Shown in pieces: positions 13,489-62,847 of a stretch of 64,000 nucleotides of DNA; within the stretch, counting starts at the first letter, position 1; each line of letters begins with the position of its first letter. The DNA is taken from the NCBI GenBank assembly GCA_965216295.1, contig OZ244141.1:365299-429298 (forward strand), written 5' to 3'. A program made the position numbers and the translations under genes. Below the pieces are notes generated by a model. That model did no database searches. It was not told the DNA's origin and saw only the letters and a program-made list of their open reading frames with translations. This stretch comes from Minisyncoccota bacterium (GTDB lineage: Bacteria > Patescibacteriota > Minisyncoccia > Phycocordibacterales > JABAAK01).

Positions 13489-13572
13489 GCCGAGGTGGCG
13501 AAATTGGTAGACGCGTTGCGTTCAGAGCGCAATGGGAGTAATCCCGTGGAGGTTCAAGTCCTCTCCTCGGCA
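13489..13572 (+). tRNA. tRNA-Leu (anticodon CAG), class II with long variable arm
   Basis: GCCGAGGTGGCGAAATTGGTAGACGCGTTGCGTTCAGAGCGCAATGGGAGTAATCCCGTGGAGGTTCAAGTCCTCTCCTCGGCA. The acceptor pairs over 7 bp, the anticodon loop is TTCAGAG, and the variable arm is TGGGAGTAATCCCGTG. Confidence 0.85.
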
Positions 13573-13706
13573 CTAAAACAAATTTGATATCAAATAGTAT
13601 TTTTTGTTCTGTTTTCATTAAATTTTTATTATGATTGAATTTAGTCATATTTGCTCTTGATAACCATAGTGTATATAGAGTAAGATATATGTGCAATATA
13701 TAAAGT

Positions 13707-15449
13707 GTGAAAATTAGCATGACAGATATAAATCTACATCAAAAACAAAAAGGAGATAGAAATGAGTGTACTCGTCTAATTCTTGATTCGAGAACAAAAA
13801 ATAAGATAATAGTTGCTGGTCCAGGAACTGGCAAGAGCTTTACATTTCAAGAACTTTTGAAAACTAAAGGTAGAAACGGTCTCGCGCTTACTTTTACCAA
13901 TAATCTGGCACAAGATTTGGAAAAAGATCTTGGAACTTTGGCGAAATCATACACTTTTCACGGCTATTGTAAAAAACTTCTTCACAGAATTTCTGTAGAC
14001 GGTATAGATACTGATTTTCTTTATTATCCGAAGCTTTCTAAATTGATAAAATCGGACGCGATAATTATTGGAAATACTCTTGAAAAATTTGACGAAGCGT
14101 TTCATATACTAGCTAGGGACAGTCGCATTGAATTTTATCTTGAATGTGCAAATTACTATAACGCTGTTGGGCATAATGATGCCGTTTACCGTGTCCTCAA
14201 ATATTTTCAAACAAAAAAAGATTCTCTACCTTCATTCTCTCAAATAGTGGTGGACGAATATCAAGATTTCAATCAGCTCGAAGTTGCATTTATTGATGAA
14301 TTGGCAAAGACTAGCCCGATATTGATTGTTGGAGATGATGATCAAGCAATTTATAATTTTAAAAATGCATCGCCCGATCATATTCGTACTAAGTTCATTC
14401 ATGCAGATTTTGAAAAATTTGAACTACCTTATTGTAGTCGTTGCACAGAAGTAATTATTAGTTCTGTTCACGATGTTATAAAAAAAGCGAAAAGCATTGG
14501 GAAATTACAAAACAGAATTGAGAAAAATTATATTTGCTTTTTGCCCGACAAGGAAACTGATAACATAAAACATCCTCAAATTATTCACGCAAAATGTTCA
14601 GTACAAAATTCTCGTACACCTTATATTTCAAAATTTATAGAGCAGGAAATTAAAAAAATACCACAAATAGAAATTAATTGTGCGCGAGAAAAGGGTTTTC
14701 CGTGTGTTTTAATTGCTGGACCCTCACACTATACAAAACAAGTATATGACTATTTATTGGAAAATAATTTTAAAAATATTGACTATGTTGGCACAAAAAA
14801 ACAAAATGTTGAGTTTTTAGAAGGATATGAAGTTTTAATGCATAATAGGAACTCGAATCTTGGTTGGCGAATAATTTTAGAATGTTCAAGATTGACGGAT
14901 AAAACAGATATTATTAAAATGATGAACGGGTCAAAACAAAAATTAACTGATTTGCTCTCACCGGATTTTAAAGAAAAACATCTTGCTGTTGTTGCACTTC
15001 TCGCAAAACTAAAACTCAACGAAACATTGCTCGAATCAGAAATCCAAAAGTTACTTTCAGAATGTGGAAAACAAAAAATTCAGGAAATCAAGGAATTTCT
15101 AAATATTAATCTAGAAACAGAAAATGATGAGGAAACAATCGAAGACACAAATATTTCAATAAAAATTACAACAATAAGCGGTTCTAAAGGTTTATCAGCA
15201 AATTATGTTTTCCTCATTGGGATGAATAATAATGATTTTCCAAAAAACGATCAAAATCCAACAGACAATGAAATTTGCCAATTTATTGTTGGAATTACAC
15301 GAACAAGAAAAAAATGTTATTTGATATCAAATTTTCGTTTTGCAGGGGCTTCTAGAAAATCAAAATCAGTGTTCATTGATTGGATAAAAACGGAAAAAGT
15401 TGCTGAAGTAAATGTGAGTGCTAGTTTTTTCCAAAACCCTGCTCGTTAA
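13707..15449 (+). CDS. Minimal UvrD/Rep-like superfamily 1 DNA helicase
   Basis: 580 aa with these SF1 motifs: Walker A 'VAGPGTGKSFT', motif Ia 'TFTNNLAQDL', motif II 'VVDEYQDFN', motif III 'VGDDDQAIYNFKNA', motif V 'TISGSKGLSANYVFLIG', motif VI 'IVGITRTRKK'. No accessory nuclease domain is visible. Very AT-rich. It immediately follows tRNA-Leu. Confidence 0.7.
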   Translation: MKISMTDINLHQKQKGDRNECTRLILDSRTKNKIIVAGPGTGKSFTFQELLKTKGRNGLALTFTNNLAQDLEKDLGTLAKSYTFHGYCKKLLHRISVDGIDTDFLYYPKLSKLIKSDAIIIGNTLEKFDEAFHILARDSRIEFYLECANYYNAVGHNDAVYRVLKYFQTKKDSLPSFSQIVVDEYQDFNQLEVAFIDELAKTSPILIVGDDDQAIYNFKNASPDHIRTKFIHADFEKFELPYCSRCTEVIISSVHDVIKKAKSIGKLQNRIEKNYICFLPDKETDNIKHPQIIHAKCSVQNSRTPYISKFIEQEIKKIPQIEINCAREKGFPCVLIAGPSHYTKQVYDYLLENNFKNIDYVGTKKQNVEFLEGYEVLMHNRNSNLGWRIILECSRLTDKTDIIKMMNGSKQKLTDLLSPDFKEKHLAVVALLAKLKLNETLLESEIQKLLSECGKQKIQEIKEFLNINLETENDEETIEDTNISIKITTISGSKGLSANYVFLIGMNNNDFPKNDQNPTDNEICQFIVGITRTRKKCYLISNFRFAGASRKSKSVFIDWIKTEKVAEVNVSASFFQNPAR

Positions 15450-15543
15450 ATTTTTGCTTATTCAAAGTAAATCTTCACGAAGTGTATAACTATAGCACCA
15501 ATAAAACACGTATCGCATTTATTTTGTTATACTACAGCAACCT

Positions 15544-15771
15544 ATGACAGACGCCTCTATAAAAAAATCAAAGTATACATGTTCAAAATGTAAGCACTCA
15601 AAATATGAGTCAGGAGAAATAAGAGCAGCGGGTAGTTTTTGGACAAAAATCTTTAATATTCAAAATAAAAAATTTCTATCAATTTCGTGTAAAAAATGTG
15701 GCCATACAGAATTCTATTCTCAAGATAAAGCAAAAACCGTCGAAAACATTTTTGATTTCCTTATCGGTTAA
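15544..15771 (+). CDS. Zn-ribbon nucleic-acid-binding protein (DUF-type, CxxC...CxxC)
   Basis: 75 aa: 'YTCSKCKHSKYESGE...ISCKKCGHTEFY'. Two CxxC pairs with a C-terminal GHTEFY, typical of small predicted Zn-ribbon proteins. Confidence 0.55.
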   Translation: MTDASIKKSKYTCSKCKHSKYESGEIRAAGSFWTKIFNIQNKKFLSISCKKCGHTEFYSQDKAKTVENIFDFLIG

Positions 15772-15772
15772 G

Positions 15773-16225
15773 TTACTCTATAGTACATTCCGTATTATTC
15801 GTTGCTAGCAGACAGTAGAGACGATTGAGTTCTGTTGGATAAGGATATTCATACCCAATCACCTTATGCGGTATGGTACATGTTTTCTGTTTTACTGTTT
15901 CTAAACCACACCACCGATTATCATCATAGCCACAAGCAATAACTGCTTTATCAATATGTGCGAAATACCATGTGTAAACAACTGGAATAATCTCAGGTGG
16001 TGTGTTTGGGAGGAGACAACTCGCAGCAGCAATATCTTTATTTTCTGTTCGTGTTGGTAGTGGCACCTCTTGTTTTTCTCCATTAACAGTCGTCACTGTT
16101 GTTTTTGGTGGTGTCATATCCGTTATTAAAACGGTAATCACAACAAGAATAACAATAAGGGAGATACCAATGAGAAAACGAATAGTGTTTTGATGCATAT
16201 AATCTATCGCTGTATCGTACCACAA
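15773..16225 (-). CDS. Membrane-anchored Cys-containing hypothetical secreted protein
   Basis: 150 aa. N-terminal TM (IRFLIGISLIVILVVITVLI) and an extracellular part with 5 Cys. No motif recognised. Confidence 0.4.
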   Translation of the reverse strand: MWYDTAIDYMHQNTIRFLIGISLIVILVVITVLITDMTPPKTTVTTVNGEKQEVPLPTRTENKDIAAASCLLPNTPPEIIPVVYTWYFAHIDKAVIACGYDDNRWCGLETVKQKTCTIPHKVIGYEYPYPTELNRLYCLLATNNTECTIE

Positions 16226-16229
16226 AGGA

Positions 16230-16634
16230 TTACTCTTTTTCCTTTTCTTCTAGGTTAAGAGCGCATGAATTGATACAGTACCGCTGCCCTGTTGGTGTAT
16301 CAGGAGCATCTGGAAAGACATGCCCTAAATGTGCCCCACAGCGTTTACAGAGCACTTCAGTTCTCGTCGTACCAAGAGAGCTATCTACCCGTGTACCAAC
16401 ATTCTCTGCTTGTGCGATATCATAGAAACTTGGCCAACCAGAGTATGAATCAAACTTTGTTTTTGAATCAAAAAGTTCTGCATTACACACAGCACATCGA
16501 TACATACCATCCGCCTTTGTTTTGTAATATTTCCCACTAAATGCCGCTTCGGTACCCTGCTCTTGTGTTACCCGATATGTTTCATCATCTAATCGCTCTC
16601 GCAACTCTTCTTCAGAAAATGATTGCTGTTCCAT
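16230..16634 (-). CDS. msrB: Peptide methionine sulfoxide reductase MsrB
   Basis: Two CxxC pairs (CAVCNAEL / CKRCGAHLGHVF) and the 'RYCINSCAL' catalytic Cys motif of SelR/MsrB. Confidence 0.9.
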   Translation of the reverse strand: MEQQSFSEEELRERLDDETYRVTQEQGTEAAFSGKYYKTKADGMYRCAVCNAELFDSKTKFDSYSGWPSFYDIAQAENVGTRVDSSLGTTRTEVLCKRCGAHLGHVFPDAPDTPTGQRYCINSCALNLEEKEKE

Positions 16635-16648
16635 AAAATCAGTATACG

Positions 16649-17113
16649 TTACCCTCCAATTGATCGTTTTTGAATGTACTGCTGATGGTAATCTTCTGCC
16701 TCGTAGAAAGTGGTTGCCTTGGTAATCTCTGTCACAATACCAGCGGGATATACTCCTTGTTCTTCTAACCTCTTTTTTTCCTCTTCAGCAATTTGTTGTT
16801 CTTCTGGAGTAGTGTAGAAAATAGCGGAGCGATACTGTGTTCCTCTATCTGGTCCCTGCATATTAGGTGTTGTTGGATCGTGGATACTCCAAAAACGTTT
16901 TACGAGATCTTGATATGTTATCTGTTCTGAGTCATAGGTTACTTCAACCGCCTCTGCATGATTTGTGGTACCACTACAGACACCCTCATAACTAGGACTT
17001 TCTGTTGATCCACCAGTGTATCCAACTCGTGTTGATACAACACCAGGAGTGGTGCGGAACTTCTCTTCTACTCCCCAGAAGCATCCCGCGGCAAATATCG
17101 CAATTCCCTGCAT
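16649..17113 (-). CDS. msrA: Peptide methionine sulfoxide reductase MsrA
   Basis: 'AIFAAGCFWGVEEKF...GVVSTRVGYTGG' is the MsrA GCFWG active-site signature. Confidence 0.9.
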   Translation of the reverse strand: MQGIAIFAAGCFWGVEEKFRTTPGVVSTRVGYTGGSTESPSYEGVCSGTTNHAEAVEVTYDSEQITYQDLVKRFWSIHDPTTPNMQGPDRGTQYRSAIFYTTPEEQQIAEEEKKRLEEQGVYPAGIVTEITKATTFYEAEDYHQQYIQKRSIGG

Positions 17114-17136
17114 AATGGTAGTATATACACTATCTC

Positions 17137-17227
17137 GGAGGGGTGCCAGAGTGGTTGAATGGGGCGGTTTCGAAAACCGCTGTCATGCTTCATCGTGTGA
17201 CCGAGGGTTCGAATCCCTCCCCCTCCG
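17137..17227 (+). tRNA. tRNA-Ser (anticodon CGA), class II
   Basis: GGAGGGGTGCCAGAGTGGTTGAATGGGGCGGTTTCGAAAACCGCTGTCATGCTTCATCGTGTGACCGAGGGTTCGAATCCCTCCCCCTCCG. Acceptor GGAGGGG/CCCCTCC, anticodon loop TTCGAAA, long variable arm. Confidence 0.85.
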
Positions 17228-17442
17228 CATTGTAACCAAATGAGGGTTCAAAGTTACACTTTGCCTTCTGCATAAGCCGTTTTTCCAAAGAGTTCTTAAC
17301 CTAGATAAATCAATTTTTCTATGTCTTCAGCTTCTTAGTATCAATGTAGCGGTAAATGGTCATAATGTTGACTTGCAGGATGTCTGTTGTGTTTTTGACT
17401 TTATAGAAATCTCTAATATTCATAAGTATATGATACTTTACA

Positions 17443-18918
17443 ATGCTTTACATAGCAAATATATTGGTGAATAATATATATGTGAGATTTTCTAAACACT
17501 TCAAACTGAATAAAACACAAACAGAGCTGGACTTCGTAGATATTCCTCTGAAAACAGATATTCCTCTTTACATAGATCCTCATGTCATTGCGACACGTGA
17601 AGATTTGCTGTCAGTCAAATGCAACAACATCGTTGTCAACTTTTTTCAAACCGTTGTTACAAAAATAAAAAATGGTGATGATGAATTTGCGAAATATATG
17701 CTGAGTAAATTGAGAGAGCCCAACCAAACACATTTTGGACTTTCCAGCAAAGAGCCGAAAGGAAGGGGGGTGGGGGGTAAACAATCAATTGACATATACA
17801 AAAAATTCAAAGAAAGTGAGGCCATAAAAACTGGATTTCTGAAAGATCTTTCAGGGACAGAACTTGTGATTGAAGGTATTGGTAATGACAAGATTTCAGA
17901 TATGACTACGAATATAATAAAAAAAGATCTTATAGAATACACACAAAAACAATGTGACACATACGGCATACCAACAGAAAATGTTCCTGCAGAATTTTAT
18001 TGGAACCCGCAGAACCAAGAGTGGGAAAATGAATATGTTCAAATCCCTGTCTATGAAAACAGGTCCATAATTTTGGTACCCAAAGTGTTTGCGAGATACC
18101 AAATTCAATACAATCACCAACAGTATTACAACAAATTTGTTTTGGAGTATCTTCAGCAAGAGCATATTGATGCTAATTCTTCATTAGTGAAGCTTCTGAA
18201 AAATGGTGAGAAAAAAGTCTATAAAAAAGATTTGAAAAATGAAGAAGAATACAAATTGTCAAAAAAATTTCTATACGAATTCTCCAACGAGCATCCAGAG
18301 GTGCTGGAACAGTATACGAACTCAGTCTCAAGGGATATCAAACCTATTACGGACACCGAGATTGAAATTCGTCATCCTGAACCAAAGAAGATTGATTATT
18401 CGGAGCTGAAAGAAAAACTGCGCGCTATTCCAACAGGCAAGAAAGATGCTAGTAACTACCACAACGTTATGGTGGGTATACTTGAAGCTATATTTTCACC
18501 AAATTTATATGCACCAGCAAAAGAGGAAAAGATACACAATGGGCGAAAATTTATTGATATTATTTTCTTGAATGGTGCAAAAAAAGGGTTTTTTAAATAT
18601 ATTACAAATAACTTCCGTTTCCCTCAAATAATTTGTGAGTGCAAAAATTACACAGAGGACCCTGCAAATCCTGCATTTGACCAGCTTTCTGGTAGATTTT
18701 CCCCTAATAGAGGACAGTTTGGATTTTTGTTAGCACGAACATTTAAGAACAAAAATAAGGCTAAGCAACGCTGTAAAGATACTGCGAATGACCACCGTGG
18801 ATTTATTATTCCTCTGGACGATGCCGACATTATGCAGCTTATAGACTGGAAAAATAAAAATGACTTCCAGAAAATTGATGATTTTCTTACAAATCAATTT
18901 AGAGAACTAATTAACTAG
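17443..18918 (+). CDS. Hypothetical protein with C-terminal Mrr-cat-like PD-(D/E)xK restriction-endonuclease domain and unrecognised ~330-aa N-terminal domain
   Basis: C-terminal 'YHNVMVGILEAIF...GRKFIDIIFLNG...FPQIICECKNY...AFDQLSGRF...GQFGFLLARTFKN' parallels the Mrr_cat pattern (E.V..LL..G...GIDII...ILIQCKRY...V.EL.G....GIIVTT.FT). No motif found in residues 1-330. Strongly AT-rich. First gene after tRNA-Ser. Confidence 0.5.
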   Translation: MLYIANILVNNIYVRFSKHFKLNKTQTELDFVDIPLKTDIPLYIDPHVIATREDLLSVKCNNIVVNFFQTVVTKIKNGDDEFAKYMLSKLREPNQTHFGLSSKEPKGRGVGGKQSIDIYKKFKESEAIKTGFLKDLSGTELVIEGIGNDKISDMTTNIIKKDLIEYTQKQCDTYGIPTENVPAEFYWNPQNQEWENEYVQIPVYENRSIILVPKVFARYQIQYNHQQYYNKFVLEYLQQEHIDANSSLVKLLKNGEKKVYKKDLKNEEEYKLSKKFLYEFSNEHPEVLEQYTNSVSRDIKPITDTEIEIRHPEPKKIDYSELKEKLRAIPTGKKDASNYHNVMVGILEAIFSPNLYAPAKEEKIHNGRKFIDIIFLNGAKKGFFKYITNNFRFPQIICECKNYTEDPANPAFDQLSGRFSPNRGQFGFLLARTFKNKNKAKQRCKDTANDHRGFIIPLDDADIMQLIDWKNKNDFQKIDDFLTNQFRELIN

Positions 18919-24374: not shown

Positions 24375-25742
24375 ATGGAACGAAAATACTACATAATAGC
24401 AATCGGTATACTCCTCGGAAGTGTCATTGTGCTGTGGTACCAACTACACATTACCTCTGCCACCTACACCATCCTCTTGCCAGAAAAAGATGATACTCCT
24501 GTCACATTAACGTATGGTGAACAAACGGCCTTTGCCGATGAAAACTTTTTTCGACAAGTAGAACAAAAGTTCATAGAAGAGAAAACGGACTTCATTTCAG
24601 CAGATCTCACCAATCAACGCCTCAAACTATACAAAAAAGGTAAAGTCGTGGAAGATGTTCCCATTCTTTCAAAAGGATTGGAAGGATCGTGGTGGGAAAC
24701 ACCCTCAGGATTATTTGCCATTCATACACAAAAAGAAAATCACTTCTCTACTTTTGGGAGTGTTCACATGCCATATGCTATGCAATTTCAAGGAAATTTC
24801 TTTATCCATGGTTGGCCATACTATCCAGACGGCACCCCGGTGAAACAATCATTTTCAGGTGGATGCATTCGTTTAAACACTGAAGATGCAAAAAAGATAT
24901 ATACTCAAACACACGTTGGTATTCCCGTATTAGTACATGAAGCGAAACAGAAAGAAACCGTCTTTACCTACCCTTCATTAAAACCAAACATTTCCGCATC
25001 ATCATTTTTGGTTGCCGATGTGAACAATAATGTGGTGCTGGTAGATCACAATCCTGATGCCATACTTCCCATCGCTTCAATTACAAAACTTATGACAGCG
25101 TTGATAGCAATTGAATATGTGAATATAGAAAAATTGTTGCGAGTATCTCCTGAAGCATTGGTTCCAACATCAAAACCACGACTCCAAGCTGGATCATATA
25201 ACTCCATTTATCATCTCCTCTATCCACTCCTTCGTGAATCATCAAATGAGGCAGCAATCGTTATCGGCAACAGTGTTAACCCAGATAGATTTATTACCTT
25301 TATGAACCAAAAAGCAAAATCGGTTGGTATGGAACACACCGCTTTCACGAATACTTCAGGGAGTGACAGTGGCAATGTTTCAACCGCTAGAGACCTTTTC
25401 CGGTTTGCAAAGTATTTACATACTAATAGAAATTTTGTATTAAATATTACAAAAGGAGATTTGGAACTTGAAAAGACATATGGCAAGCTCCCGTATGAAG
25501 ATCTTGGTAATTACAATATATACAGTGACACTGAAACATTTTTAGGTGGCAAGATTGGTAAAACACAAGCGGCAGGAGAAACAATGGTAGCGCTGTTTAA
25601 TGTCCCTATCGGCAACACACAACGAGCGGTGGTAGTAATTGCTTTGGGAAGTAGTGACGTAGAAAAAGATATTAATACACTATTGGAATACGTGGTAAAC
25701 AAGTATGCTGTACCGAAGAGATCAACGAGATTCCCTCTCTAA
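24375..25742 (+). CDS. Bifunctional-looking L,D-transpeptidase (YkuD) / PBP5-type D,D-carboxypeptidase fusion, membrane-anchored
   Basis: N-terminal TM anchor. YkuD catalytic region 'FIHGWPYY...SFSGGCIRLNTEDAKKIY' (His...Cys). C-terminal S11-peptidase motifs SxxK 'IASITKLMTA', SxN 'RESSNEA', KTG-like 'GKIGKTQ'. Confidence 0.7.
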   Translation: MERKYYIIAIGILLGSVIVLWYQLHITSATYTILLPEKDDTPVTLTYGEQTAFADENFFRQVEQKFIEEKTDFISADLTNQRLKLYKKGKVVEDVPILSKGLEGSWWETPSGLFAIHTQKENHFSTFGSVHMPYAMQFQGNFFIHGWPYYPDGTPVKQSFSGGCIRLNTEDAKKIYTQTHVGIPVLVHEAKQKETVFTYPSLKPNISASSFLVADVNNNVVLVDHNPDAILPIASITKLMTALIAIEYVNIEKLLRVSPEALVPTSKPRLQAGSYNSIYHLLYPLLRESSNEAAIVIGNSVNPDRFITFMNQKAKSVGMEHTAFTNTSGSDSGNVSTARDLFRFAKYLHTNRNFVLNITKGDLELEKTYGKLPYEDLGNYNIYSDTETFLGGKIGKTQAAGETMVALFNVPIGNTQRAVVVIALGSSDVEKDINTLLEYVVNKYAVPKRSTRFPL

Positions 25743-32541: not shown

Positions 32542-33684
32542 TTACGTAGTAAGGAAATAACGACTGTACCGCTGTGGATCTTTAGAGATAATGGCAGTAC
32601 CGCGGGCAACGATAGTCACTGGATCTTTAGGGATAGTGACTTTGAGGTTTAATGCTTCTTGTATTTGACTGGCAAAGGTGTGAATCAATGTTCCTCCACC
32701 AACAAAGTAAATCCCTTGTTTTTTTAAATCAGCAGCAATCTCTGAAGGAAGCTTTTCAACTACTTGTTTTACTTTCTGTACCACTAAGCGTAATACTGGC
32801 ATAAGATATTCAATTACTTCAGTGACAGTAATGGTTACTTCTTTTGGTAATCCTGTCTTACAATCTTGTCCACGAACGATAAATTTCTTTTTCTGTTTTT
32901 GCTCACTCGATTGCATGGTTGCTATTTTCAAATCCTCTGCGGTACGGATACCAACCTTCACATTCTTTATATCGGCAAGTGCTTTAATGATTATTTTATT
33001 AAACGAATCACCTGCAATCTTAATACTCTCTGCGATGATAACTTCTCCTCGCGAAAGCACAATAACATCACTCGTACCACCACCGACGTCAATCACCATG
33101 ATTGATTCACCAAGTTTTGAAAATATCTGTAAGTCTGCCCCAATCGCTGCAGCGATCGGTTCTGCAATGAGATGTACTTCTCGTGCTCCAGCATCAAGTG
33201 CTACATTGCGTACCGCATTTGCCTCTATCTCTCGTACTGCACATGGGACACCAATAATGACTGTTGGATTAAATAGTTTAGGAGCAATGGTATTCACTTT
33301 CCTAAAAATATATGAAAATAACTGCTCTGCCACCTCATAATCAGAAATGACTCCATCTTTCAATGGTTGTATAACTTCTATATGTCTTGGCGTGCGTCCA
33401 AGCATTTGTCGTGCTTCCTTACCAATAGCGCTAATCTGTGCTGTTCGTTTATTAATTGTTAATAGTGTTGGTTCATTGAATACAACCCCCTTACCACTCA
33501 AGTACACAACAGTAACCGCAGTTCCAAGATCAATACCTATTTTATTAGAAAATGTAGTTGGTGTTTTTTTGCGTATTTTTTGTATTACTCCTGCACTATT
33601 AAAATATTTCATACGATTCAACAGCTTTTCAACGAAAGAGTAGCCAGTCCTTTTCCGTGTATAGTTGTTGTTTTTCAACCGCAT
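32542..33684 (-). CDS. mreB: Rod shape-determining actin homologue MreB (copy 1, with mreCD)
   Basis: 'IGIDLGTAVTVVYLSGKGVVFNEPTLLT...MLGRTPRHIEVIQPLKDGVISDYE' has the MreB phosphate-1 and connect motifs. True start is probably an internal Met (MKYFNSAG...). Confidence 0.9.
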   Translation of the reverse strand: MRLKNNNYTRKRTGYSFVEKLLNRMKYFNSAGVIQKIRKKTPTTFSNKIGIDLGTAVTVVYLSGKGVVFNEPTLLTINKRTAQISAIGKEARQMLGRTPRHIEVIQPLKDGVISDYEVAEQLFSYIFRKVNTIAPKLFNPTVIIGVPCAVREIEANAVRNVALDAGAREVHLIAEPIAAAIGADLQIFSKLGESIMVIDVGGGTSDVIVLSRGEVIIAESIKIAGDSFNKIIIKALADIKNVKVGIRTAEDLKIATMQSSEQKQKKKFIVRGQDCKTGLPKEVTITVTEVIEYLMPVLRLVVQKVKQVVEKLPSEIAADLKKQGIYFVGGGTLIHTFASQIQEALNLKVTIPKDPVTIVARGTAIISKDPQRYSRYFLTT

Positions 33685-35732: not shown

Positions 35733-36767
35733 TTACTGTGCTAAAAGCGATTGACGATAGACAGGAATACCGCCAGTTTGTAACAGTTTACCGATACCAC
35801 GCACCACTGAGCGTGATGGATCCTCAGCAATTCGGACTGGTGTTTGTAGGTGTGTGGCAATAAAGCGATCTATCTGTGGAATCTGTGCAACACCACCAGT
35901 TAAGACAATGCCGTGATCAATGATATCAGAGGTAAGCTCCGGTGGTGTGGTACTGAATACCTGACCAATCACTTCTGTGATAGCCATCAATCCTTGGCGC
36001 ATACCTTCAGCAATATCAGTCGTATTGACCTGTACTATTTTGGGGAAACCAGTCGTCGCATCTTTCCCTCGAACTCGTGCCGTCTTTGTATTACTCATAA
36101 TACTTGCCGCACCAATAGTGTTTTTTAACTTCTCCGCTGTATGCCTTCCAATATGAATTTTGTACTTCTCTTGTATATATTGAGCGATACCTTCATCAAG
36201 AGCACGACCACCAACTGGTACACTTCCGTGACTGAGCATACCACCTAATGAGATAACGGCAACATCTGTCTTACCAGCTCCAATATCTGCCACCATACGC
36301 CCCTTAAGCTCGCCTGCGTGGATACCAGTACCCAACCCGGAAAGAATGCCTTCTCGCTCTGGAAATACCTCACGAACAGGGATTTGTTTACATGTTTCAA
36401 TCATCACTCGCTGTTCCATGCTATTGGCCTCTGTTGGAATAGAAACAACAATATCTGGGCGAAAAATGTTTAATCGTCCGAGTACTTTTTTCAAACACCA
36501 CTCTAAAAGATGTCGAGCTGCCTGTTGATCATTAATATTTCCTGCAATCAATGGTCGATGAACGATAATCTCTTCTGGTGCACGATCAATCATCTCCTCT
36601 GCAGAAGCACCAATACCAATCACCCTACCAGTTGTGGCATCGGTAGCAATGATGGAGGGTTCTTCAAGAACAATACCCTGTTTTGGTATAAATATTCTAA
36701 TATTACTAGTGCCAATATCTATTCCTAATTCTCGTACTAACATATAACGCAACGTCCATCGTACCAT
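35733..36767 (-). CDS. MreB-like actin homologue (copy 2, orphan)
   Basis: 'LGIDIGTSNIRIFIPKQGIVLEEPSIIA...MIDRAPEEIIVHRPLIAGNINDQQAA' and 'VADIGAGKTDVAVISLGG' are MreB/actin ATPase motifs. It is not linked to mreCD. Confidence 0.8.
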   Translation of the reverse strand: MVRWTLRYMLVRELGIDIGTSNIRIFIPKQGIVLEEPSIIATDATTGRVIGIGASAEEMIDRAPEEIIVHRPLIAGNINDQQAARHLLEWCLKKVLGRLNIFRPDIVVSIPTEANSMEQRVMIETCKQIPVREVFPEREGILSGLGTGIHAGELKGRMVADIGAGKTDVAVISLGGMLSHGSVPVGGRALDEGIAQYIQEKYKIHIGRHTAEKLKNTIGAASIMSNTKTARVRGKDATTGFPKIVQVNTTDIAEGMRQGLMAITEVIGQVFSTTPPELTSDIIDHGIVLTGGVAQIPQIDRFIATHLQTPVRIAEDPSRSVVRGIGKLLQTGGIPVYRQSLLAQ

Positions 36768-37074
36768 AAATGCTATACTGTCTCACCGTGAAATCAATAG
36801 GAAAAAAACTTCAGCATCTTGTGGGTAATACAAATGGACCGACGTCAAGTCGTGCCCATCTCATACAACAAATCTGTGACTCACTCTTTGATGGAGAAGA
36901 TTTTAAAAAAATACTTGGACAGACAAAAGAGTTCACCAATGAAGAAATACGAAATATCTTTGACACATCCTATAGTTGGAAAAAAAATCCACAAGCGCTT
37001 TTCTGGAAACTTGTGCGAGAGAAACAAGAAGAAGTGCGCAATACGTTACAGGAAAAAAGTAAACAATCACTCGA

Positions 37075-37311
37075 TTAAAGTCTTTTTCGTAAATATTCAA
37101 TAATATCGTCACTTTCGTAAAGTGCAAAATCTTCATCAGTATCAATCAAAAAAGGAACTTGTCTCTTCCCTCCTTTTTCCATTAATTCACTGAGATTCTC
37201 TTCTTCAGAAATACTCTTGAGAGTAATTTTTAATTTATCATCATGCTCTTTTAGAAAATCAAGTACTTTCTGACAAAAAGGACAGGTAGGAAGATAGTAG
37301 AGTAAAAACAT
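37075..37311 (-). CDS. Glutaredoxin-like thioredoxin-fold protein
   Basis: 78 aa with a CPFC active site in 'LLYYLPTCPFCQKVLDFL' and 'VPFLID' downstream. Confidence 0.7.
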   Translation of the reverse strand: MFLLYYLPTCPFCQKVLDFLKEHDDKLKITLKSISEEENLSELMEKGGKRQVPFLIDTDEDFALYESDDIIEYLRKRL

Positions 37312-37396
37312 AACAATATCTGTATACTAAAGATGTCTTAAGTATAACACAGTAACACCATAGTGCAATTGATAAGATGTGGTATAACGATGACAT

Positions 37397-37471
37397 TCCG
37401 CGGTAGCTCAGCGGTAGAGCAACTGGCTGTTAACCAGTAGGTCACAGGTTCGAATCCCGTCCGCGGAGCCA
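37397..37471 (+). tRNA. tRNA-Asn (anticodon GTT), CCA encoded
   Basis: TCCGCGGTAGCTCAGCGGTAGAGCAACTGGCTGTTAACCAGTAGGTCACAGGTTCGAATCCCGTCCGCGGAGCCA. Acceptor 7 bp, anticodon loop CTGTTAA. Confidence 0.85.
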
Positions 37472-37514
37472 AAAAATTATTTTTTGATTGGTATCTTTTT
37501 GATTACATTTGTTT

Positions 37515-38771
37515 TTAAACTCTAAATCCTATATCGTTACGATAATACGCATTATTCCAACTTGCTTGTTTTACAAGTGAATAGGCTTTGATTTGTGCAT
37601 CTTTGATATCGTCTCCCAGTGCGGTCACACAAAGCACTCTTCCTCCGTCGCTTAAAACTTGATTGTTTTCATATTTTGTTCCTGCGTGAAATATTTTTGT
37701 GTCGAGTGTTTCATCAGGCAAAAGAATCTTGTCGCCCGTTTGATACTTTCCTGGATATCCGTTTGATGCCATTACAACGCCGAGTGCTACTCGCTTGTCC
37801 CATTCCATCTCAGCTTCGTTTAATTTTCCTTGTGTAGAGAGGAAACACGCGTCGGCGATGTTTGATTTCAATCTCATAAGTATTGGCTGTGTTTCTGGAT
37901 CTCCAAGTCGACAGTTATATTCAAGAACTTTTGCATTGCCCTCTTTGTCAATCATAAGTCCTGCGTATAAAAATCCTGTATATTTTCTACCTTCTTTTTT
38001 CATAGCCTGTGTCGTTGGTTTTATTATTTGTTCCATTATTCTCTTCTTTAGTTCATCTGTAACAATTGGTGTGGGTGAGTATGCTCCCATACCTCCAGTG
38101 TTTGGTCCCTTATCTCCATCGTCTCGTGCTTTGTGATCCTGAGAGGTTGCGAGTGGCAATATAAAATCTCCGTCTGTCATAACTATAAAACTAACTTCCT
38201 GCCCAGTTAGAAATTCCTCTATGACTATCTGATGTCCTGCCTCACCAAATCTGTCGTTCTCTAAAAAGTCTTCTGCGGTCTGAGCTGCGGTTTGTATATC
38301 TTTTGCAATAACAACTCCCTTGCCTTTAGCTAGACCGTCTGCCTTAATGACAAGTGGTGCACCCTTTTGCTTTATATATTCAATAGCTTTTTCTTTTTGT
38401 GTAAATGTCTCGTACTCGGGAGTTGGTATGTTGTTTCTTTTTAAGAAATCCTTGCAGAATTTCTTTGAGCCTTCAAGCTCAGATGCTTTTTCTGTTGGTC
38501 CAAATATGTTTAACCCTTCTGCTATAAATCTGTCGACCATACCAAGCACAAGTGGAGCTTCTGGTCCTACTATTGTTAAATCAATTTGATTTGATTTTGC
38601 AAATGTGAGTAACCCATCTATGTTTGTAACTTCAATATCAATGTTTGTTATGCTTTCTTCAAGGTGTGTGCCGGCATTTCCTGGAGCTACGAATACTTCA
38701 CTTCCGTGCTTTACACAGTTCCATGCTATTGCGTGCTCTCTACCCCCTTTTCCTATTATTAGGACTTTCAT
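37515..38771 (-). CDS. purD: Phosphoribosylamine--glycine ligase (GAR synthetase)
   Basis: 418 aa. 'MKVLIIGKGGREHAIAW', ATP-grasp motifs ('GLAKGKGVVIA', 'EEFLTGQEVSFIVMTDG', 'GPNTGGMGAYSP'), full-length PurD collinearity. Confidence 0.9.
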   Translation of the reverse strand: MKVLIIGKGGREHAIAWNCVKHGSEVFVAPGNAGTHLEESITNIDIEVTNIDGLLTFAKSNQIDLTIVGPEAPLVLGMVDRFIAEGLNIFGPTEKASELEGSKKFCKDFLKRNNIPTPEYETFTQKEKAIEYIKQKGAPLVIKADGLAKGKGVVIAKDIQTAAQTAEDFLENDRFGEAGHQIVIEEFLTGQEVSFIVMTDGDFILPLATSQDHKARDDGDKGPNTGGMGAYSPTPIVTDELKKRIMEQIIKPTTQAMKKEGRKYTGFLYAGLMIDKEGNAKVLEYNCRLGDPETQPILMRLKSNIADACFLSTQGKLNEAEMEWDKRVALGVVMASNGYPGKYQTGDKILLPDETLDTKIFHAGTKYENNQVLSDGGRVLCVTALGDDIKDAQIKAYSLVKQASWNNAYYRNDIGFRV

Positions 38772-38832
38772 AATATTCAGTATAACGACTATCTGTACGA
38801 TACCTTGGTATGCAATATTTTTATTCTATAAT

Positions 38833-39216
38833 TTAAATCCAGAAGACAAGTGCGAATAAGAATGCGGAGAGGGCGAGGCTGAAGACTGCTCCCCATAGAA
38901 CAATTTTTGGTTTTTCTAGAGTTTTGTGTGTTAGTGCAATGATATTTTTGCGGAATGCTAAGAACACAAATCCTTCTAGTGCGGTGAGTGCACCGAGGAT
39001 GGCAGCAACTGCGCTGTGGAGTTGCCATTCAAATGCGTTGACTACGACTATTATTCCAAATACGATTTCCAGAAATCCAATGAGTAGACAGAGTTCACTA
39101 TGATCCGTGATTACGTCTGCGAGATTTTTGAAAGATTCTTTGTTCCAAAAATAAACTACTCCAAATAGAAGAAAGATTATTGCAAATATTAGAAGTATTA
39201 TGCTTATTAAATCCAT
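38833..39216 (-). CDS. Polytopic membrane hypothetical protein
   Basis: 127 aa with four predicted TM helices. Confidence 0.4.
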   Translation of the reverse strand: MDLISIILLIFAIIFLLFGVVYFWNKESFKNLADVITDHSELCLLIGFLEIVFGIIVVVNAFEWQLHSAVAAILGALTALEGFVFLAFRKNIIALTHKTLEKPKIVLWGAVFSLALSAFLFALVFWI

Positions 39217-39292
39217 GTTGAATATATTATATCATTTTCTGTTTAAGATGGCTGAGTATATCAATAGAGACAGTGTGATGATGTATAAAGAA

Positions 39293-39343
39293 CAACTGAC
39301 TGTTAATCAGTAGGTCACAGATTCGAATCTCGTCCGCTGAGCA
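39293..39343 (+). repeat. Degenerate direct repeat of the 3' half of tRNA-Asn (tRNA fragment / att-like remnant)
   Basis: CAACTGACTGTTAATCAGTAGGTCACAGATTCGAATCTCGTCCGCTGAGCA aligns to the intact tRNA-Asn from the anticodon stem to the 3' end with ~6 mismatches in 52 nt. The upstream sequence cannot form D-arm or acceptor pairing, so this is not a functional tRNA. Confidence 0.6.
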
Positions 39344-39488
39344 AAACAATAGCAAAAGAATATTAATAAATAAAGAGGATAAAGATAGCAACTGTTATCG
39401 TTGCTATTGTTAGTCCAACAAATCTGTCATTGAATCGCATACTTTTTTTTCAATACACACTGATATACAATGGAGTAGTACATATAGT

Positions 39489-39740
39489 ATGCCACAAATG
39501 GGAGACAACCTTTTTACCGTTGCCGATATGGTTATCGCAGATAACTCGTTTTTTGTTCTACCAGCAGTTTTGTTGAGTTTTTTTATTGCCTTAATGATTG
39601 TTGGTATGAATACGACAATACAGGCGATGTTTACACGAATACTCTATGCTGTCATTCTCTCCTTGATAACCTTTATCGGATTGCTCTTCACTGGCATGGT
39701 CATACTTATCATCTCTGGTGTCATCAAAGGTATCTATTAA
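39489..39740 (+). CDS. Small membrane hypothetical protein
   Basis: 83 aa with two TM helices. Confidence 0.3.
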   Translation: MPQMGDNLFTVADMVIADNSFFVLPAVLLSFFIALMIVGMNTTIQAMFTRILYAVILSLITFIGLLFTGMVILIISGVIKGIY

Positions 39741-39747
39741 CCCCGAC

Positions 39748-41208
39748 TCAAAACTCTGGGAGGTACTCTAATGGATTGAGTTTTGCATTGTTTGGAGCAG
39801 CTGGTATGAGTAATCCTTTACAGAGTCCTTTTGACGAAAATTCCTCATAGGGAATGATACGGAATCCGCCTGACGCATAGAGACCAAAGTGTAAGTGTGG
39901 GCCAGTGCTCTGCCCCGTGTTCCCACTGTATCCAACAAGTTCACCAGCAGTGACTCGTTGGCCAACACGAACCCTGATGAGTGAAAGGTGTGCATAGAGA
40001 GTTGTTAAGCCATTATCGTGTTTGATAGCAATCCATTTTCCCCATAACTGACAACTTCGTACAAGATCAGTGTTTCCGGTACCAACGACCTTCCCGTTTG
40101 CCGTTGCATAGAGTTTGGTGTTTGATGAAACGCCAAAATCAACACCAGAGTGAAATGGTCGTGCATACGGACTCCTGCTACTACGGGCAAATTCTGTTGC
40201 ACCAAATCCTTGGGTAATGCGAGGTGTTTCGTTAATAGGCCAACGCAAAATGCCACGTCTTGGTGTTGGTAGTGTGTTTGGGTTTTTGATGTACTCTATC
40301 CGTGATTCATAATCAAACAATTCTTGTTGCAAATTCCTACGTTCTTCAAGTTTTGTTGCTAGTAACGCTTGATACTCTGTTTCATTATTTCTTGTTTCAT
40401 TAACAATACGCTGCTGTCGTGCAGTTGATACTTCATAGAGACGCTGGCGGTCGTTGAGTTCTTTCTCTGATACTTGCAAACTACTTTTTTCTAAAGCAAT
40501 GCGAGTTTTATCTTTCTCCAACTGTATCGTTGTTTCTCGTAAACGATTTGTTTGGTCTGCAAGTGTTCCTGTCAAAGTGGTAATTTCATCAATTCGTTTA
40601 ATAACACCAAAGGCAGAGTCACCAAAAAGAACAAGTAACTTTTTATCACCCAACACAAATTCATTACTTCGTCGATAGTTCTCTATAAGTGCAAAGTAGA
40701 GTACAGTCATCTGATCAGTGCTACTGTCTAAATTTTCATTCAACCCTTCGAGTTTTAATTGACTACGATTGATATTTTCTTGCGTTAATAAAATTTGCTT
40801 TTTATTACGTGAGTTCGTCAGTGAGAGAGAGCGTAGCTGTGCTTCGAGAGTAACTTTTTCTTTTCCAATGATATCTAATTTTTGGTTTATCTCTGCTATT
40901 TCCTTTTCCGTTGATTCAATGAGTTTGTTTTTTTGCACAACCTGACTTTCTAGCTTCACCAACACTGAATTTTCCTGAAGTTCTGGCAGAGGGATGATAC
41001 CGCTATCTAAAGCTCCTTTTGCCCGTATTCCTGTCTGAGATTTCTTTTCCTCTTCAATGATAATAACAGGAGCGACAATTTTTTTCGAATCAATCGACTG
41101 ACTTTCAACAAGAATACTCTTTTGGTAAACGAGTGGTCCACCAACAAGAAAAAGTATAAGAAGAGCAATTTTCCAATCCATATATATATACATACCTACG
41201 AATGGCAT
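39748..41208 (-). CDS. M23-family peptidoglycan endopeptidase with long N-terminal coiled-coil (EnvC-like)
   Basis: C-terminal LytM domain with 'HSGVDFGVS...G.WIAIKHDNGLTTLYAHL...GNTGQSTGPHLHFGLY'. N-terminal ~300 aa are predicted coiled-coil. Confidence 0.85.
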   Translation of the reverse strand: MPFVGMYIYMDWKIALLILFLVGGPLVYQKSILVESQSIDSKKIVAPVIIIEEEKKSQTGIRAKGALDSGIIPLPELQENSVLVKLESQVVQKNKLIESTEKEIAEINQKLDIIGKEKVTLEAQLRSLSLTNSRNKKQILLTQENINRSQLKLEGLNENLDSSTDQMTVLYFALIENYRRSNEFVLGDKKLLVLFGDSAFGVIKRIDEITTLTGTLADQTNRLRETTIQLEKDKTRIALEKSSLQVSEKELNDRQRLYEVSTARQQRIVNETRNNETEYQALLATKLEERRNLQQELFDYESRIEYIKNPNTLPTPRRGILRWPINETPRITQGFGATEFARSSRSPYARPFHSGVDFGVSSNTKLYATANGKVVGTGNTDLVRSCQLWGKWIAIKHDNGLTTLYAHLSLIRVRVGQRVTAGELVGYSGNTGQSTGPHLHFGLYASGGFRIIPYEEFSSKGLCKGLLIPAAPNNAKLNPLEYLPEF

Positions 41209-41253
41209 CTATTACATACCCATAGTACACGGTAATTGGCTATCTCTTGCATG

Positions 41254-42603
41254 CTATGCATTTTGTAAACAAGCAATAGCGTTCATAATCCTTTTATGTG
41301 TCTCCCGTTTTCCAATTGCCATAACAATAGAGAATATATCAGGGCTTTGTTTTTTTCCTGACAATGCAACACGGAGAGGCCAGAGAACATCCTTTTTGCC
41401 GTGTGTCTCAGCATATGGTAGCAATGCTTCTTGTATACTCTCTGATTTCCAAGAAGACAATCCTGCGAGTAACTTCTTGACCGCATCAAGATGCATACAA
41501 GTGACATCTTTTTTGGTTTCAGGTGATGGTAAAAGTAGTGTGGCATCACACTCGGGAGATTTGTAATAAAAATCATACTCTCCTGCGCGTATTGCCTGTT
41601 GCATGTCACTCACCGTACTACATCGTTGTCGTAATTCTTGTAAAAGCATAGCAGTACTGGTAGAGCGTCGGAGAAGGAGAAAGAAAGAGAGTCGTTTTCG
41701 CAACACTGGCAAGAGCCATTGAAGAAGCTTTCGTTCTGACACAGTGCGAAGATAATGCTGATTGTACCAACGGAGTTTTGCCTCATCGTACACTGCTTCT
41801 TTTTTCTGCAGTTTTTCAAATGAGAAACGCTCTATCAATTCCTCTTTGCTGTATAACTCTGTATCTTCTTTTGAACTCCATCCTAACGATGCCATGTAGT
41901 TGATGAGTGCTTCAGGAAGATATCCTTCGTCACGAAAAGCATTCACTGCAGTTGCATGTTTTCGTTTTGATAACTTTCCACCATCTGCTGAATGAATGAG
42001 AGGTATGTGTACAAAGCGAGGAGCTTGTTTACCAAATGCTTCAAAGAGAAGTATCTGTCGTGGTGTGTTTGAAATATGATCATCACCACGAATGATATGT
42101 GTCACTCCCATTGCAATGTCATCAATTACAACGGCGAGATTATAGAGTGGTTTGCGAACACTTTTAGCAATGACAAAATCTCCTAACTCACTGGTTTCCA
42201 TAGTAATCACACCACGAACATCATCATGAAATGAAACCTTCTTCTGAGGATTTTTAAAGCGCACCACATCAACCATGTCTGTTTCAGAATCACGTGCTTG
42301 TTCATGTGAAATATATGCCTTCCCATCTTGTATTAATTGAGAAATACGTTCGTGATATAAATCGGTACGATCACTTTGTCGTACCACCACATCAGGATGC
42401 ATTCCTAACCACTTGAGTGCACTGTGTGCATCGTCTAAGTACTCTTTTTTACTCCGTGCAACATCAGTGTCTTCAAAGCGGAGAATAAATGTTCCTGCAT
42501 GTTTCTTGGCATAGAGGTAGTTAAAAAGAGCTGTTCGAGCGGTGCCAATATGAAAAGGTCCTGTGGGACTTGGCGCAATACGAGTAACAACGGTTTCACT
42601 CAT
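41254..42603 (-). CDS. gltX: Glutamyl-tRNA synthetase
   Basis: 'RIAPSPTGPFHIGTARTALFNY...LRFEDTD' HIGH region and 'KLSKR' KMSKS variant. Confidence 0.9.
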   Translation of the reverse strand: MSETVVTRIAPSPTGPFHIGTARTALFNYLYAKKHAGTFILRFEDTDVARSKKEYLDDAHSALKWLGMHPDVVVRQSDRTDLYHERISQLIQDGKAYISHEQARDSETDMVDVVRFKNPQKKVSFHDDVRGVITMETSELGDFVIAKSVRKPLYNLAVVIDDIAMGVTHIIRGDDHISNTPRQILLFEAFGKQAPRFVHIPLIHSADGGKLSKRKHATAVNAFRDEGYLPEALINYMASLGWSSKEDTELYSKEELIERFSFEKLQKKEAVYDEAKLRWYNQHYLRTVSERKLLQWLLPVLRKRLSFFLLLRRSTSTAMLLQELRQRCSTVSDMQQAIRAGEYDFYYKSPECDATLLLPSPETKKDVTCMHLDAVKKLLAGLSSWKSESIQEALLPYAETHGKKDVLWPLRVALSGKKQSPDIFSIVMAIGKRETHKRIMNAIACLQNA

Positions 42604-59358: not shown

Positions 59359-59964
59359 TTAACGTGAATAATATTCAAGAACCGTCGGAAGACCAAAAAA
59401 GTCATCGTCGGTAGTGGGGTTTTTGTTGATTGAACCGGTTTTCTTTTTTGTATCCCAGTTCAACCACGGAGCACGACTAGTAATGCCGTCACTCGTTATT
59501 TTTTTAAATAATGTGGTTTGTTTACTCCCTTCACGAATACCAACAATGTCGGTATTACGAACCTGATAGGAGGGTATGGTGCTCTTTCGGTCATTCACAG
59601 TGAAATGCCCGTGTGACACCATTTGTCGTGCCATACGACGCGTATCAGCTAAACCAAGACGATACACCATGTTATCGAGTCGACGTTCTAGAAATTCACC
59701 AAGGGCAACAACAGTGGTCGCTCCTTCTTGTTTCTCTGCCTTTTTTACATACCCTTTGAGAGCACGTTCAGAGATACCGTAAATATACCGAACTTTTTGT
59801 TTCTCTATCAATTGTTTCCCATATTCGGTAACACGTTTTCGACGACGACCAGTCGTCATTGTTCCTTGTCGTTGCTCGCGCAGGGCAAATTTCTGCGTTT
59901 GACATTTCTCAAACACAGGCATTTTGAGTCGGCGACTAATTTTGTACTTTTTGACTGGTTTCAT
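59359..59964 (-). CDS. rpsD: 30S ribosomal protein S4
   Basis: 'MKPVKKYKISRRL...YGKQLIEKQKVRYIYGISERAL...LERRLDNMVYRLGLADTRRMARQMVSHGHFTVNDRKSTIPSYQV'. Start reassigned to an internal ATG at 59964, 5 bp downstream of the rpsK stop. The listed 293-aa ORF over-extends. Confidence 0.92.
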   Translation of the reverse strand: MKPVKKYKISRRLKMPVFEKCQTQKFALREQRQGTMTTGRRRKRVTEYGKQLIEKQKVRYIYGISERALKGYVKKAEKQEGATTVVALGEFLERRLDNMVYRLGLADTRRMARQMVSHGHFTVNDRKSTIPSYQVRNTDIVGIREGSKQTTLFKKITSDGITSRAPWLNWDTKKKTGSINKNPTTDDDFFGLPTVLEYYSR

Positions 59965-59968
59965 ATAT

Positions 59969-60412
59969 CTATCCCCTTCGTGGCTTTCTTCGACGCGGTC
60001 CGTTGTGTGGCACTGGTGTTTTATCTTTAATAGAGAGTATATCAAAACCCCGATTAATGAATGAACGAAGTGCTGATTCTCGTCCTCCACCAACACCCTT
60101 GATAACAATGGACACTTCTTTAACACCAATAGCCTGTGCCTTTTCTGCAATGGCATCAGCAACCTTCGCTGCTGCATATGGCGTTGATTTTTTTGCACTG
60201 TTAAATCCAAGCGCTGTACTCGTCGTCCACATAACAACATTACCGTTTTTCTCAGTAAAGATTACTTTTGTGTTATTAAAGCTTGCTTCGATAAAGACAA
60301 TACCTGAAAGTACTTTTTTCTTGGGTAACTTTGAAAGAACGCGAGTACGACGACCAGTATTAGCACCACCACGTTCAATCTTATCTGCTGTTCTTTTTTT
60401 ACCCATAGACAA
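59969..60412 (-). CDS. rpsK: 30S ribosomal protein S11
   Basis: '...GIVFIEASFNNTKVIFTEKNGNVVMWTTSTALGF...AAAKVADAIAEKAQAIGVKEVSIVIKGVGGGRESALR'. Confidence 0.95.
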   Translation of the reverse strand: MSMGKKRTADKIERGGANTGRRTRVLSKLPKKKVLSGIVFIEASFNNTKVIFTEKNGNVVMWTTSTALGFNSAKKSTPYAAAKVADAIAEKAQAIGVKEVSIVIKGVGGGRESALRSFINRGFDILSIKDKTPVPHNGPRRRKPRRG

Positions 60413-62782: not shown

Positions 62783-62847
62783 AGTACTTATCTCAAGTAT
62801 AGTAGCACATCTGTTCGTCTTGTCAATTGATATCGTCATATTCTCAA

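Follow-up and report, generated by a model that had tools for sequence, protein, structure and literature searches.

The DNA analyzed here, referred to as the window, is a stretch of 64,000 nt from contig OZ244141.1 of a Minisyncoccota bacterium. The host is a very divergent member of the Candidate Phyla Radiation (CPR, or Patescibacteria), and its contig of 511,782 bp agrees with the reduced genome that a preliminary description of the locus had supposed. Its MreB protein (encoded at 35733–36767) is at most 44% identical to anything besides itself, the named matches being to Candidatus Kaiserbacteria and Paceibacterota. That description drew attention to two genes lying between an intact tRNA-Asn gene and a degenerate copy of its 3' half: purD, for phosphoribosylamine-glycine ligase, and a gene for a small membrane protein, here called TM127. 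The features of this bracket are listed below, together with the extent of its homology to another CPR contig, L011 (ERZ26869290, ctg358188), and a remnant of a DUF2779 gene that was recognized by alignment with L011 and a further CPR contig, L010.

37397–37471, + strand: tRNA-Asn (GTT), intact, CCA encoded, attL-like end of the bracket (ARAGORN; Rfam tRNA, 71.2 bits)
37416–37477, + strand: direct repeat, copy 1, starting 7 nt before the anticodon stem and ending 6 nt after the tRNA 3' end
37472–37514, no strand: T-rich spacer of 43 nt from the tRNA 3' end to the purD stop codon, without L011 homology (alignment; blastn boundary 37517)
37515–38771, − strand: purD, phosphoribosylamine-glycine ligase, 418 aa, intact, gammaproteobacterial type (Pfam GARS_N/A/C)
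37517–39264, − strand: purD-TM127 module, the region of nucleotide homology to L011 (blastn, window 36500–41300 against L011)
38833–39216, − strand: TM127, 127 aa, four predicted transmembrane (TM) helices (list of open reading frames, ORFs; helices counted by reading the sequence)
39227–39268, − strand: 3' remnant of a DUF2779 gene, its last 13 codons and stop, ...SIDILSHLKQKMI* (alignment with L010 and L011)
39269–39288, no strand: junction of 20 nt between the DUF2779 remnant and the tRNA fragment (alignment with L010 and L011; sequence)
39289–39350, + strand: direct repeat, copy 2, 3' part of tRNA-Asn, decayed and non-functional, attR-like end of the bracket
39385–39407, − strand: terminator-like hairpin, 40 nt beyond the fragment (consensus match only)

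The two repeat copies are identical at 54 of 62 nt (87%), have the same orientation and are spaced 1873 nt from start to start; the earlier figures of about 52 nt, 88% and 1.85 kb were correct, if slightly conservative. A repeat search showed them to be the one outstanding direct repeat within 36–41 kb of the window, and a 32-nt core of the repeat (up to 3 mismatches allowed) occurs at only two sites in the 64 kb; among 100 dinucleotide-preserving shuffles of the same DNA, none contained two matches to this core. The distal copy had been described as unable to fold as a tRNA, and this holds: it lacks a full cloverleaf that would include acceptor and D arms, and a complete second tRNA is ruled out by the absence of an ARAGORN call and by its score on the Rfam tRNA model, 20.5 bits over positions 10–63 only (gathering score 29). 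On reading the sequence 5' of 39289, likeness to the 5' half of the tRNA is at the random level, giving the fragment a sharp edge. The polarity of the differences was judged against the aligned orthologous tRNA-Asn genes of five related genomes. All six differences that lie within the tRNA are derived in the distal copy and all six are GC to AT changes, marking it as a decaying fragment; its near-universal G53 has become A, with loss of T-stem pairing, and it is not a second functional tRNA. It is a non-functional piece of the tRNA-Asn of this same lineage, decaying under AT-biased mutation. A tRNA-Asn gene brought in from a donor was ruled out as its source, since the bases specific to the window are kept, the extra differences are derived GC to AT changes, and the copy is no closer to the L010 type. 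The proposed attL/attR-type anatomy is thus present, with an intact tRNA, cargo and a displaced 3' fragment in the same orientation.

Beyond the distal copy lie an 83-aa ORF and genes for an M23 peptidase, gltX and murG. The hairpin at 39385–39407 probably terminates the convergent transcript of the M23 peptidase gene and is part of the native flank. A motif, AATAG.A.AAGA, is conserved 3' of the fragment and 3' of the tRNAs of relatives, a weak hint that this flank is native.

The gene content of the window was surveyed by Pfam scans of about 60 ORFs across the 64 kb, and purD and TM127 are, as had been reported, the only genes in the bracket. The three PurD domains are each matched end to end by their profiles (GARS_N, 113 bits; GARS_A, the ATP-grasp domain, 262 bits; GARS_C, 109 bits), and the protein aligns over its full length to the structures 1GSO and 3MJF. 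Its best matches in the protein database, other than itself, are 64–67% identical, the top ones scoring 638–648 bits, and those that are named all come from SUP05-clade Gammaproteobacteria (Candidatus Thioglobus, Ruthia and Bathymodiolus symbionts). L011 is missing from these matches because its intact PurD lies outside the protein database, which holds only a frameshifted arm. Scores against proteins of solved structure fall from Yersinia and Escherichia coli (549 bits) through Neisseria (462), Aquifex (436), Geobacillus (418) and Bacillus subtilis (409) to human (377), and identities are 59% with E. coli and other enterobacteria and 44–53% with other phyla among GTDB genomes. In a neighbor-joining tree of 30 sequences with 200 bootstraps, the PurDs of the window and L011 group together at 100%, and this pair falls within the E. 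coli/SUP05 clade (93%), as sister to SUP05 at 60%. PurD is therefore phylogenetically foreign to this CPR host and gammaproteobacterial in type, which is the outcome that the suggested phylogenetic check for horizontal transfer had sought.

In SUP05 genomes, purD has the context truB-x-purD-rnhB, and its neighborhood contains neither tRNA-Asn nor a small TM protein gene resembling TM127, indicating that only purD came from that source. No vector was found: the viral contigs searched gave no match to PurD, and the phage and plasmid collections held none closer, their best matches (about 60%) being enterobacterial chromosomal sequences filed there. Metagenome contigs returned a best identity of 62%. 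A profile search of genome contigs with an alignment of the window and L011 PurDs retrieved only distant PurDs (at most 52% identity), and a search of genome contigs with MreB gave no match. The literature search returned nothing on purD in CPR/Patescibacteria.

All 59 columns that are invariant among 27 diverse PurDs are kept in the window protein, as are 107 of the 108 columns conserved at 90% or more. Between the window and L011, the ratio of nonsynonymous to synonymous substitutions (dN/dS) of purD is 0.10, with dS at 0.63. PurD is thus intact and under purifying selection; from its sequence, it is predicted to be an active, canonical glycinamide ribonucleotide (GAR) synthetase, and it is presumably expressed. 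The bracketed DNA is not atypical in composition or codon usage: purD cannot be told from host genes by its GC content or by its GC at third codon positions (GC3, 0.298 compared with 0.26–0.34 in host genes), and the GC content of the bracket (0.37–0.40) resembles that of the flanks. Such host-like composition suggests that the events are old and the insertion ameliorated.

TM127 belongs to a very small family, with only 10 matches in an exhaustive HMMER search of 1.8 billion representatives, of which the named one is from Patescibacteria. On this distribution, it is a CPR gene of a rare family confined to Patescibacteria, and the idea that the membrane protein was cargo from the donor of purD did not hold up. 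Its dN/dS between the window and L011 is 0.21 (dS 0.79), and it is probably co-transcribed with purD. Two candidate relatives were rejected on comparison, namely the PycTM protein encoded next to tRNA-Asn in one of the related genomes (L007, see below) and the product of a 211-aa gene upstream of purD in SUP05. A distant homologue of TM127 has another setting and no link to tRNA-Asn. Upstream of TM127 and purD, within the tRNA fragment, there is a weak sigma70-like promoter match on the minus strand (39278–39306; −35 TTAACA, −10 CATCAT), with a −35 hexamer that is antisense to the anticodon loop. It agrees with the consensus at only 9 of 12 positions and shows no enrichment over shuffles; it may be that the two genes have taken over the scar as their promoter.

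The bracketed genes are shared with L011 as a unit. The blastn alignment covers 1784 positions at 82% nucleotide identity, starts at the purD stop codon and reaches a point 48 nt upstream of the start of TM127, where 20 nt separate it from the tRNA fragment; outside it, the window DNA from 36.5 to 41.3 kb has no blastn match to L011. The encoded proteins are 88% (PurD) and 72% (TM127) identical. Of the early proposal that purD is an isolated acquisition, the foreign ancestry therefore stands and a private, direct acquisition by this genome does not. The 48 nt upstream of TM127 consist of an intergenic spacer and the final 13 codons of a DUF2779 gene; the encoded C-terminus reads ...SIDILSHLKQKMI in the window and ...MVEIFNHLKQKVI in L011, each followed by the stop codon, a stretch also conserved in L010. 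No further DUF2779 sequence was found in the 64-kb window. The module must once have stood beside a DUF2779 gene and was cut within it.

The likely context can be seen in the two contigs. In L010, the order is UvrB-Spond_N-tRNA-Ala-rhodanese-DUF2779-TM127, followed by 7.4 kb of restriction-modification genes and then tRNA-Asn-glutaredoxin-small ORF-MreB. In L011, it is UvrB-Spond_N-tRNA-Ala-rhodanese-DUF2779-TM127-purD, followed by 148 bp that repeat the 3' end of TM127 and then by a Dcm methylase gene. DUF2779 proteins are widespread in CPR at about 50% identity and appear to be of a housekeeping type; in a more distant CPR genome, the gene does not adjoin TM127 and its locus has no link to tRNA-Asn. 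The adjacency of DUF2779 and TM127 is specific to the L010/L011 lineage, and that lineage or a relative is indicated as the source context. Identities between L010 and L011 are high for DUF2779 (85%), rhodanese (80%) and Spond_N (67%), but only 46% for TM127, and the MreB proteins of the window and L010 are 36% identical; this discordance indicates that the TM127-purD module has moved between CPR lineages. It is probable that purD reached the present genome second-hand, from another CPR bacterium. In L011, purD itself lies between two direct repeats (148 bp, 98.6%) derived from the 3' end of TM127 (10205–10352 and 11722–11869), a parallel to the tRNA repeat of the window, and this repeat structure may in part be an assembly artefact.

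The surroundings of tRNA-Asn were compared in six relatives by way of their MreB orthologues (L005, L006, L007/L008, L009 and L010), which are at most 44% identical to that of the window. All share the block MreB2-RRF-holB-thioredoxin-like-MreB-small ORF, followed by tRNA-Asn in the same orientation, with a glutaredoxin gene between the small ORF and tRNA-Asn in L005, L009 and L010. The DNA on the 3' side of tRNA-Asn is different in every relative:

L005: genes for LRV-repeat proteins
L006: Dam methylase and unknown genes
L007: recombinase and PycTM genes
L009: SocA_Panacea and unknown genes
L010: type III and TaqI-like restriction-modification genes

The 3' side of tRNA-Asn is a recurrent hotspot of insertion and gene turnover in this CPR group. 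The comparison of synteny that had been advised thus gave a conserved left flank and a variable right flank, but no close relative with an empty site. In L007, a 36-nt direct repeat (97%) of the tRNA 3' end and some downstream bases (9707–9742 and 7110–7145) spans 2.6 kb that includes genes for an N-terminally truncated large serine recombinase (8883–9788) and a PycTM protein resembling a Pycsar effector (7932–8420). This region (7110–9800) is a classical islet, now decaying, at the orthologous tRNA-Asn site. A possible third, weaker copy of the repeat lies at 6204–6227 of the same contig. In L010, the 7.4 kb between TM127 and tRNA-Asn (10404–17651) are dense in defence genes, including a type III restriction-modification methylase with ResIII/HI_1054 restriction genes, two more methyltransferases and a TaqI-like endonuclease, and there the hotspot works as a defence island.

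The reading we favor, with moderate confidence, is that the bracket is the scar of a Campbell-type insertion of a CPR-derived purD module into the 3' half of tRNA-Asn. A circular molecule would have undergone a single crossover with the 3' half of the gene, bringing in a 1.75-kb module of two genes, TM127 and purD. The source of this module would be a different CPR lineage, from whose chromosome it was cut; the order there would have been DUF2779-TM127-purD, and purD would have been acquired earlier from a gammaproteobacterium near the SUP05/Thioglobus clade. After the insertion, the functional tRNA would have been retained at the left end, and the displaced 3' half, now joined to the native 83-aa ORF, M23 peptidase, gltX and murG, would have lost its function and begun to decay under the GC to AT bias. 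The catalyst was most likely a site-specific recombinase, since lost, because the site is a hotspot and L007 provides a precedent; with its loss, the module would have become fixed. Any residual excision would join tRNA-Asn directly to AAAACAATAGCAAAAG (37415|39351). The divergence of the repeat, about 0.13 on one lineage, compares with an estimated dS per lineage of about 0.3–0.4 for the module, and may be taken as of the same order or somewhat younger. The notion of a decayed island is upheld in its tRNA-scar anatomy and not as a classical integrase island, given that the last 13 codons of DUF2779 point to a cut from a CPR chromosomal context.

Several findings weigh against this reading. 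No integrase, recombinase or remnant of one was detected in the bracket, as the preliminary description had stated, or in the 64 kb (Pfam scans, and tblastn with the L007 recombinase, which in the window matched only the antisense of the tRNA). The non-coding DNA of the bracket amounts to segments of 43, 61 and 72 nt, leaving no room for a degraded integrase, and only the 43-nt spacer and the 20-nt junction are unaccounted for. The two tRNA copies share the sequence type of the window itself and reveal no donor. The available relatives include no genome with an empty site (closest MreB 44%), and the insertion is one that we infer. In L010, TM127 likewise lies on the side of the variable region distal to tRNA-Asn, so that a rearrangement in situ is possible in place of import. 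The sister grouping of PurD with SUP05 has a bootstrap of only 60% in a simple neighbor-joining tree. Finally, L011, the only close comparator, is a low-quality, chimeric long-read contig of foldback/tandem type, with arms at 157–6710 and 9992–16532 that are 99.7% identical and a noisy third copy at 6671–8693, and its gene order beyond the module is unreliable.

Among the alternatives, an insertion without a dedicated integrase fares best and is to be taken seriously, although it is rather unlikely. Here, a chromosomal fragment of another CPR bacterium, with part of tRNA-Asn at one end, purD and TM127 in the middle and the truncated DUF2779 gene at the other end, would have been taken up and circularized, and would have entered by a RecA-type homologous crossover within the roughly 55 conserved nt of tRNA-Asn. 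Such an origin would account for cargo made up of nothing but chromosomal genes, with one end inside a gene of housekeeping type, and for the lack of space for element DNA. The donor fragment could have included the tRNA, as TM127 lies on the same side of tRNA-Asn in the L010/L011 lineage, and tRNA-Asn is 88–97% identical across these lineages. The arrangement of purD in L011 between its 148-bp repeats is analogous, but may be no more reliable than the chimeric assembly in which it is found. Moreover, 55 nt is a short substrate for homologous recombination, variants of the L010 type are present in neither tRNA copy, and a classical islet with a recombinase occupies the same site in L007.

An origin in situ is improbable. 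TM127 and DUF2779 would have been ancestral neighbors of tRNA-Asn, and the fragment would be the attR of an older, unrelated island that was later deleted or rearranged; the deletion would have removed this island and most of DUF2779, and only the alleles of purD and TM127 would have been exchanged with the L011 lineage by homologous recombination. The arrangement in L010, where tRNA-Asn, 7.4 kb of variable DNA and TM127-DUF2779 have the same relative order and orientation as in the window, is what this scenario would predict, and rapid turnover of the hotspot is seen in every relative. The repeat divergence of about 0.13 is also less than half of the module dS (0.63–0.79), an estimate that would allow the repeat and the module to derive from more than one event. 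On the other hand, more events are needed, the clade of L005, L006, L007 and L009 has neither TM127 nor DUF2779 within 10 kb of the tRNA, and the two genes are not adjacent in a more distant CPR genome. The break in homology to L011 also lies just 20 nt from the sharp edge of the fragment, which would be a coincidence if the events were independent.

That the distal copy is instead what is left of a once complete second tRNA-Asn gene, decayed after a tandem duplication and with no insertion scar, is very improbable: tRNA genes are sometimes duplicated, and one anticodon-stem pair has changed from G-C to A-T on both sides in the copy, but that change amounts to two GC to AT hits, as mutation bias would give, while a 5' half should be recognizable at 87% identity of the 3' half and identity falls to the random level 5' of 39289, G53 and the T-arm pairing are lost, and no relative has two tRNA-Asn genes at the locus.

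The structure is a fossil tRNA-linked islet without an integrase, known in its architecture and unusual in its cargo. Islands linked to asn-tRNA genes include the Yersinia high-pathogenicity island, the E. coli pks island and ICEKp1, and they share with the window an intact tRNA, foreign cargo, a 3' repeat in the same orientation and reuse of the same tRNA in related genomes. Identity blocks that run from the anticodon arm to the 3' end are typical of tRNA-integrating elements, and Williams is said to have sorted tRNA integration sites into sublocation classes in Nucleic Acids Res. in 2002. The window repeat, which extends from just 5' of the anticodon stem to the 3' end, corresponds to the anticodon-loop type of identity block. 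Unlike such islands, the bracket has no integrase, element backbone or compositional signal, its 1.87 kb is far below the typical size, and the cargo is a chromosomal fragment of a related lineage that ends inside a housekeeping-type gene. In 2004, Pavlovic et al. reportedly described cis-mobilizable elements (CIMEs), att-flanked islands without an integrase of their own, related to ICESt1 of Streptococcus thermophilus. The window resembles CIMEs in having attL/attR-like repeats around cargo without recombination genes, but its repeats are 13% diverged and the distal one has lost conserved tRNA positions. Mobilization in trans is now unlikely, and the islet looks like a fossil and not a mobilizable element.

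The islet of L007 is comparable in using the same side of the same tRNA, in its size, and in having a repeat of the tRNA 3' end and a gene for a small membrane protein (PycTM). It differs in having kept a truncated serine recombinase, in the absence of purD and in a membrane protein unrelated to TM127. The crossover also had another sublocation there than in the window, since the L007 repeat begins within the T-arm and continues for 21 nt beyond the tRNA.

Scars of tRNA-linked insertion are textbook knowledge, and the architecture itself is not new. The locus does provide a clean and datable case of a tRNA gene acting as a hotspot of gene turnover in ultra-small CPR genomes, a group in which mobile-element biology and the routes of gene gain are poorly documented. 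It would also represent a two-step transfer, from a gammaproteobacterium to a CPR bacterium and then to another CPR lineage, of a single gene of central metabolism that is still under selection.

Compared with canonical PurD (GAR synthetase, EC 6.3.4.13; E. coli 1GSO, SUP05/Thioglobus), the window protein is 59–67% identical and retains the three domains and the invariant residues; the setting is different, in that the gene occurs in a CPR genome of about 0.5 Mb, is paired with a CPR membrane-protein gene and has no other pur gene within the 64 kb. As had been noted, purine biosynthesis genes are otherwise lacking nearby, and the only other purine-related gene in the window encodes phosphoribosyl pyrophosphate synthetase (prs, 1409–2353). 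It seems slightly more likely than not that purD is an orphan in the genome as a whole, with partner genes elsewhere only somewhat less probable. Should the rest of the genome lack the purine pathway, a conserved orphan PurD would pose a real biochemical puzzle and might hint at the hosts of marine Patescibacteria, few of which are known. A broader proposal, that purD is an orphan in CPR genomes of about 0.5 Mb and yet, under strong purifying selection, is handed from one CPR lineage to another together with the gene for a small membrane protein as a cassette, is one that we regard as quite unlikely. Were it true, it would imply either that GAR synthetase is used on its own in a non-canonical way or that the purine pathway is split and the CPR cell exchanges an intermediate with a host, and the SUP05-like ancestry would then point to a sulfur-oxidizing gammaproteobacterium as that host. 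A circular Thioglobus-type genome, L002, carries the closest PurD type; it (ERZ25072740) and the CPR contigs L007 (ERZ25072670), L006/L008 (ERZ25067264) and L010 (ERZ25069837) come from European Nucleotide Archive assemblies with neighboring accession numbers. They may derive from one sampling project, and in that case SUP05 and these CPR bacteria co-occur.

The remainder of the window is rich in core genes, including mraZ/mraW, genes for three penicillin-binding proteins, two MreB paralogues, MreC and RRF, holB, murG, ftsW, mraY, genes for six aminoacyl-tRNA synthetases, dnaK/dnaJ/grpE, rpoA and a sigma-70 gene. The two mreB paralogues (32542–33684 and 35733–36767) are separated by 2 kb and accompanied by genes for MreC, RRF, holB and a thioredoxin-like protein, and this arrangement is kept in all the CPR relatives that were retrieved. 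A 455-aa ORF at 24375–25742 combines a YkuD L,D-transpeptidase domain (residues 73–187) with a Peptidase_S11 D-Ala-D-Ala carboxypeptidase domain (residues 203–406), a fusion of cell-wall enzymes that looks unusual. The ORFs for ribosomal proteins S4 (59359–60240, 293 aa) and S16 (62270–62839, 189 aa) appear long and are covered only in part by their Pfam domains, which suggests that they carry extensions. Low-GC stretches (0.28–0.32 compared with about 0.40) occur between 13489 and 21400, beside tRNA-Leu (13489–13573) and tRNA-Ser (17137–17228), with genes for a UvrD-like helicase and a MazG-like protein and ORFs of 491 and 184 aa without a Pfam match; these may be further tRNA-linked insertions. 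The first 4000 nt of the window (1–4000) are likewise low in GC.

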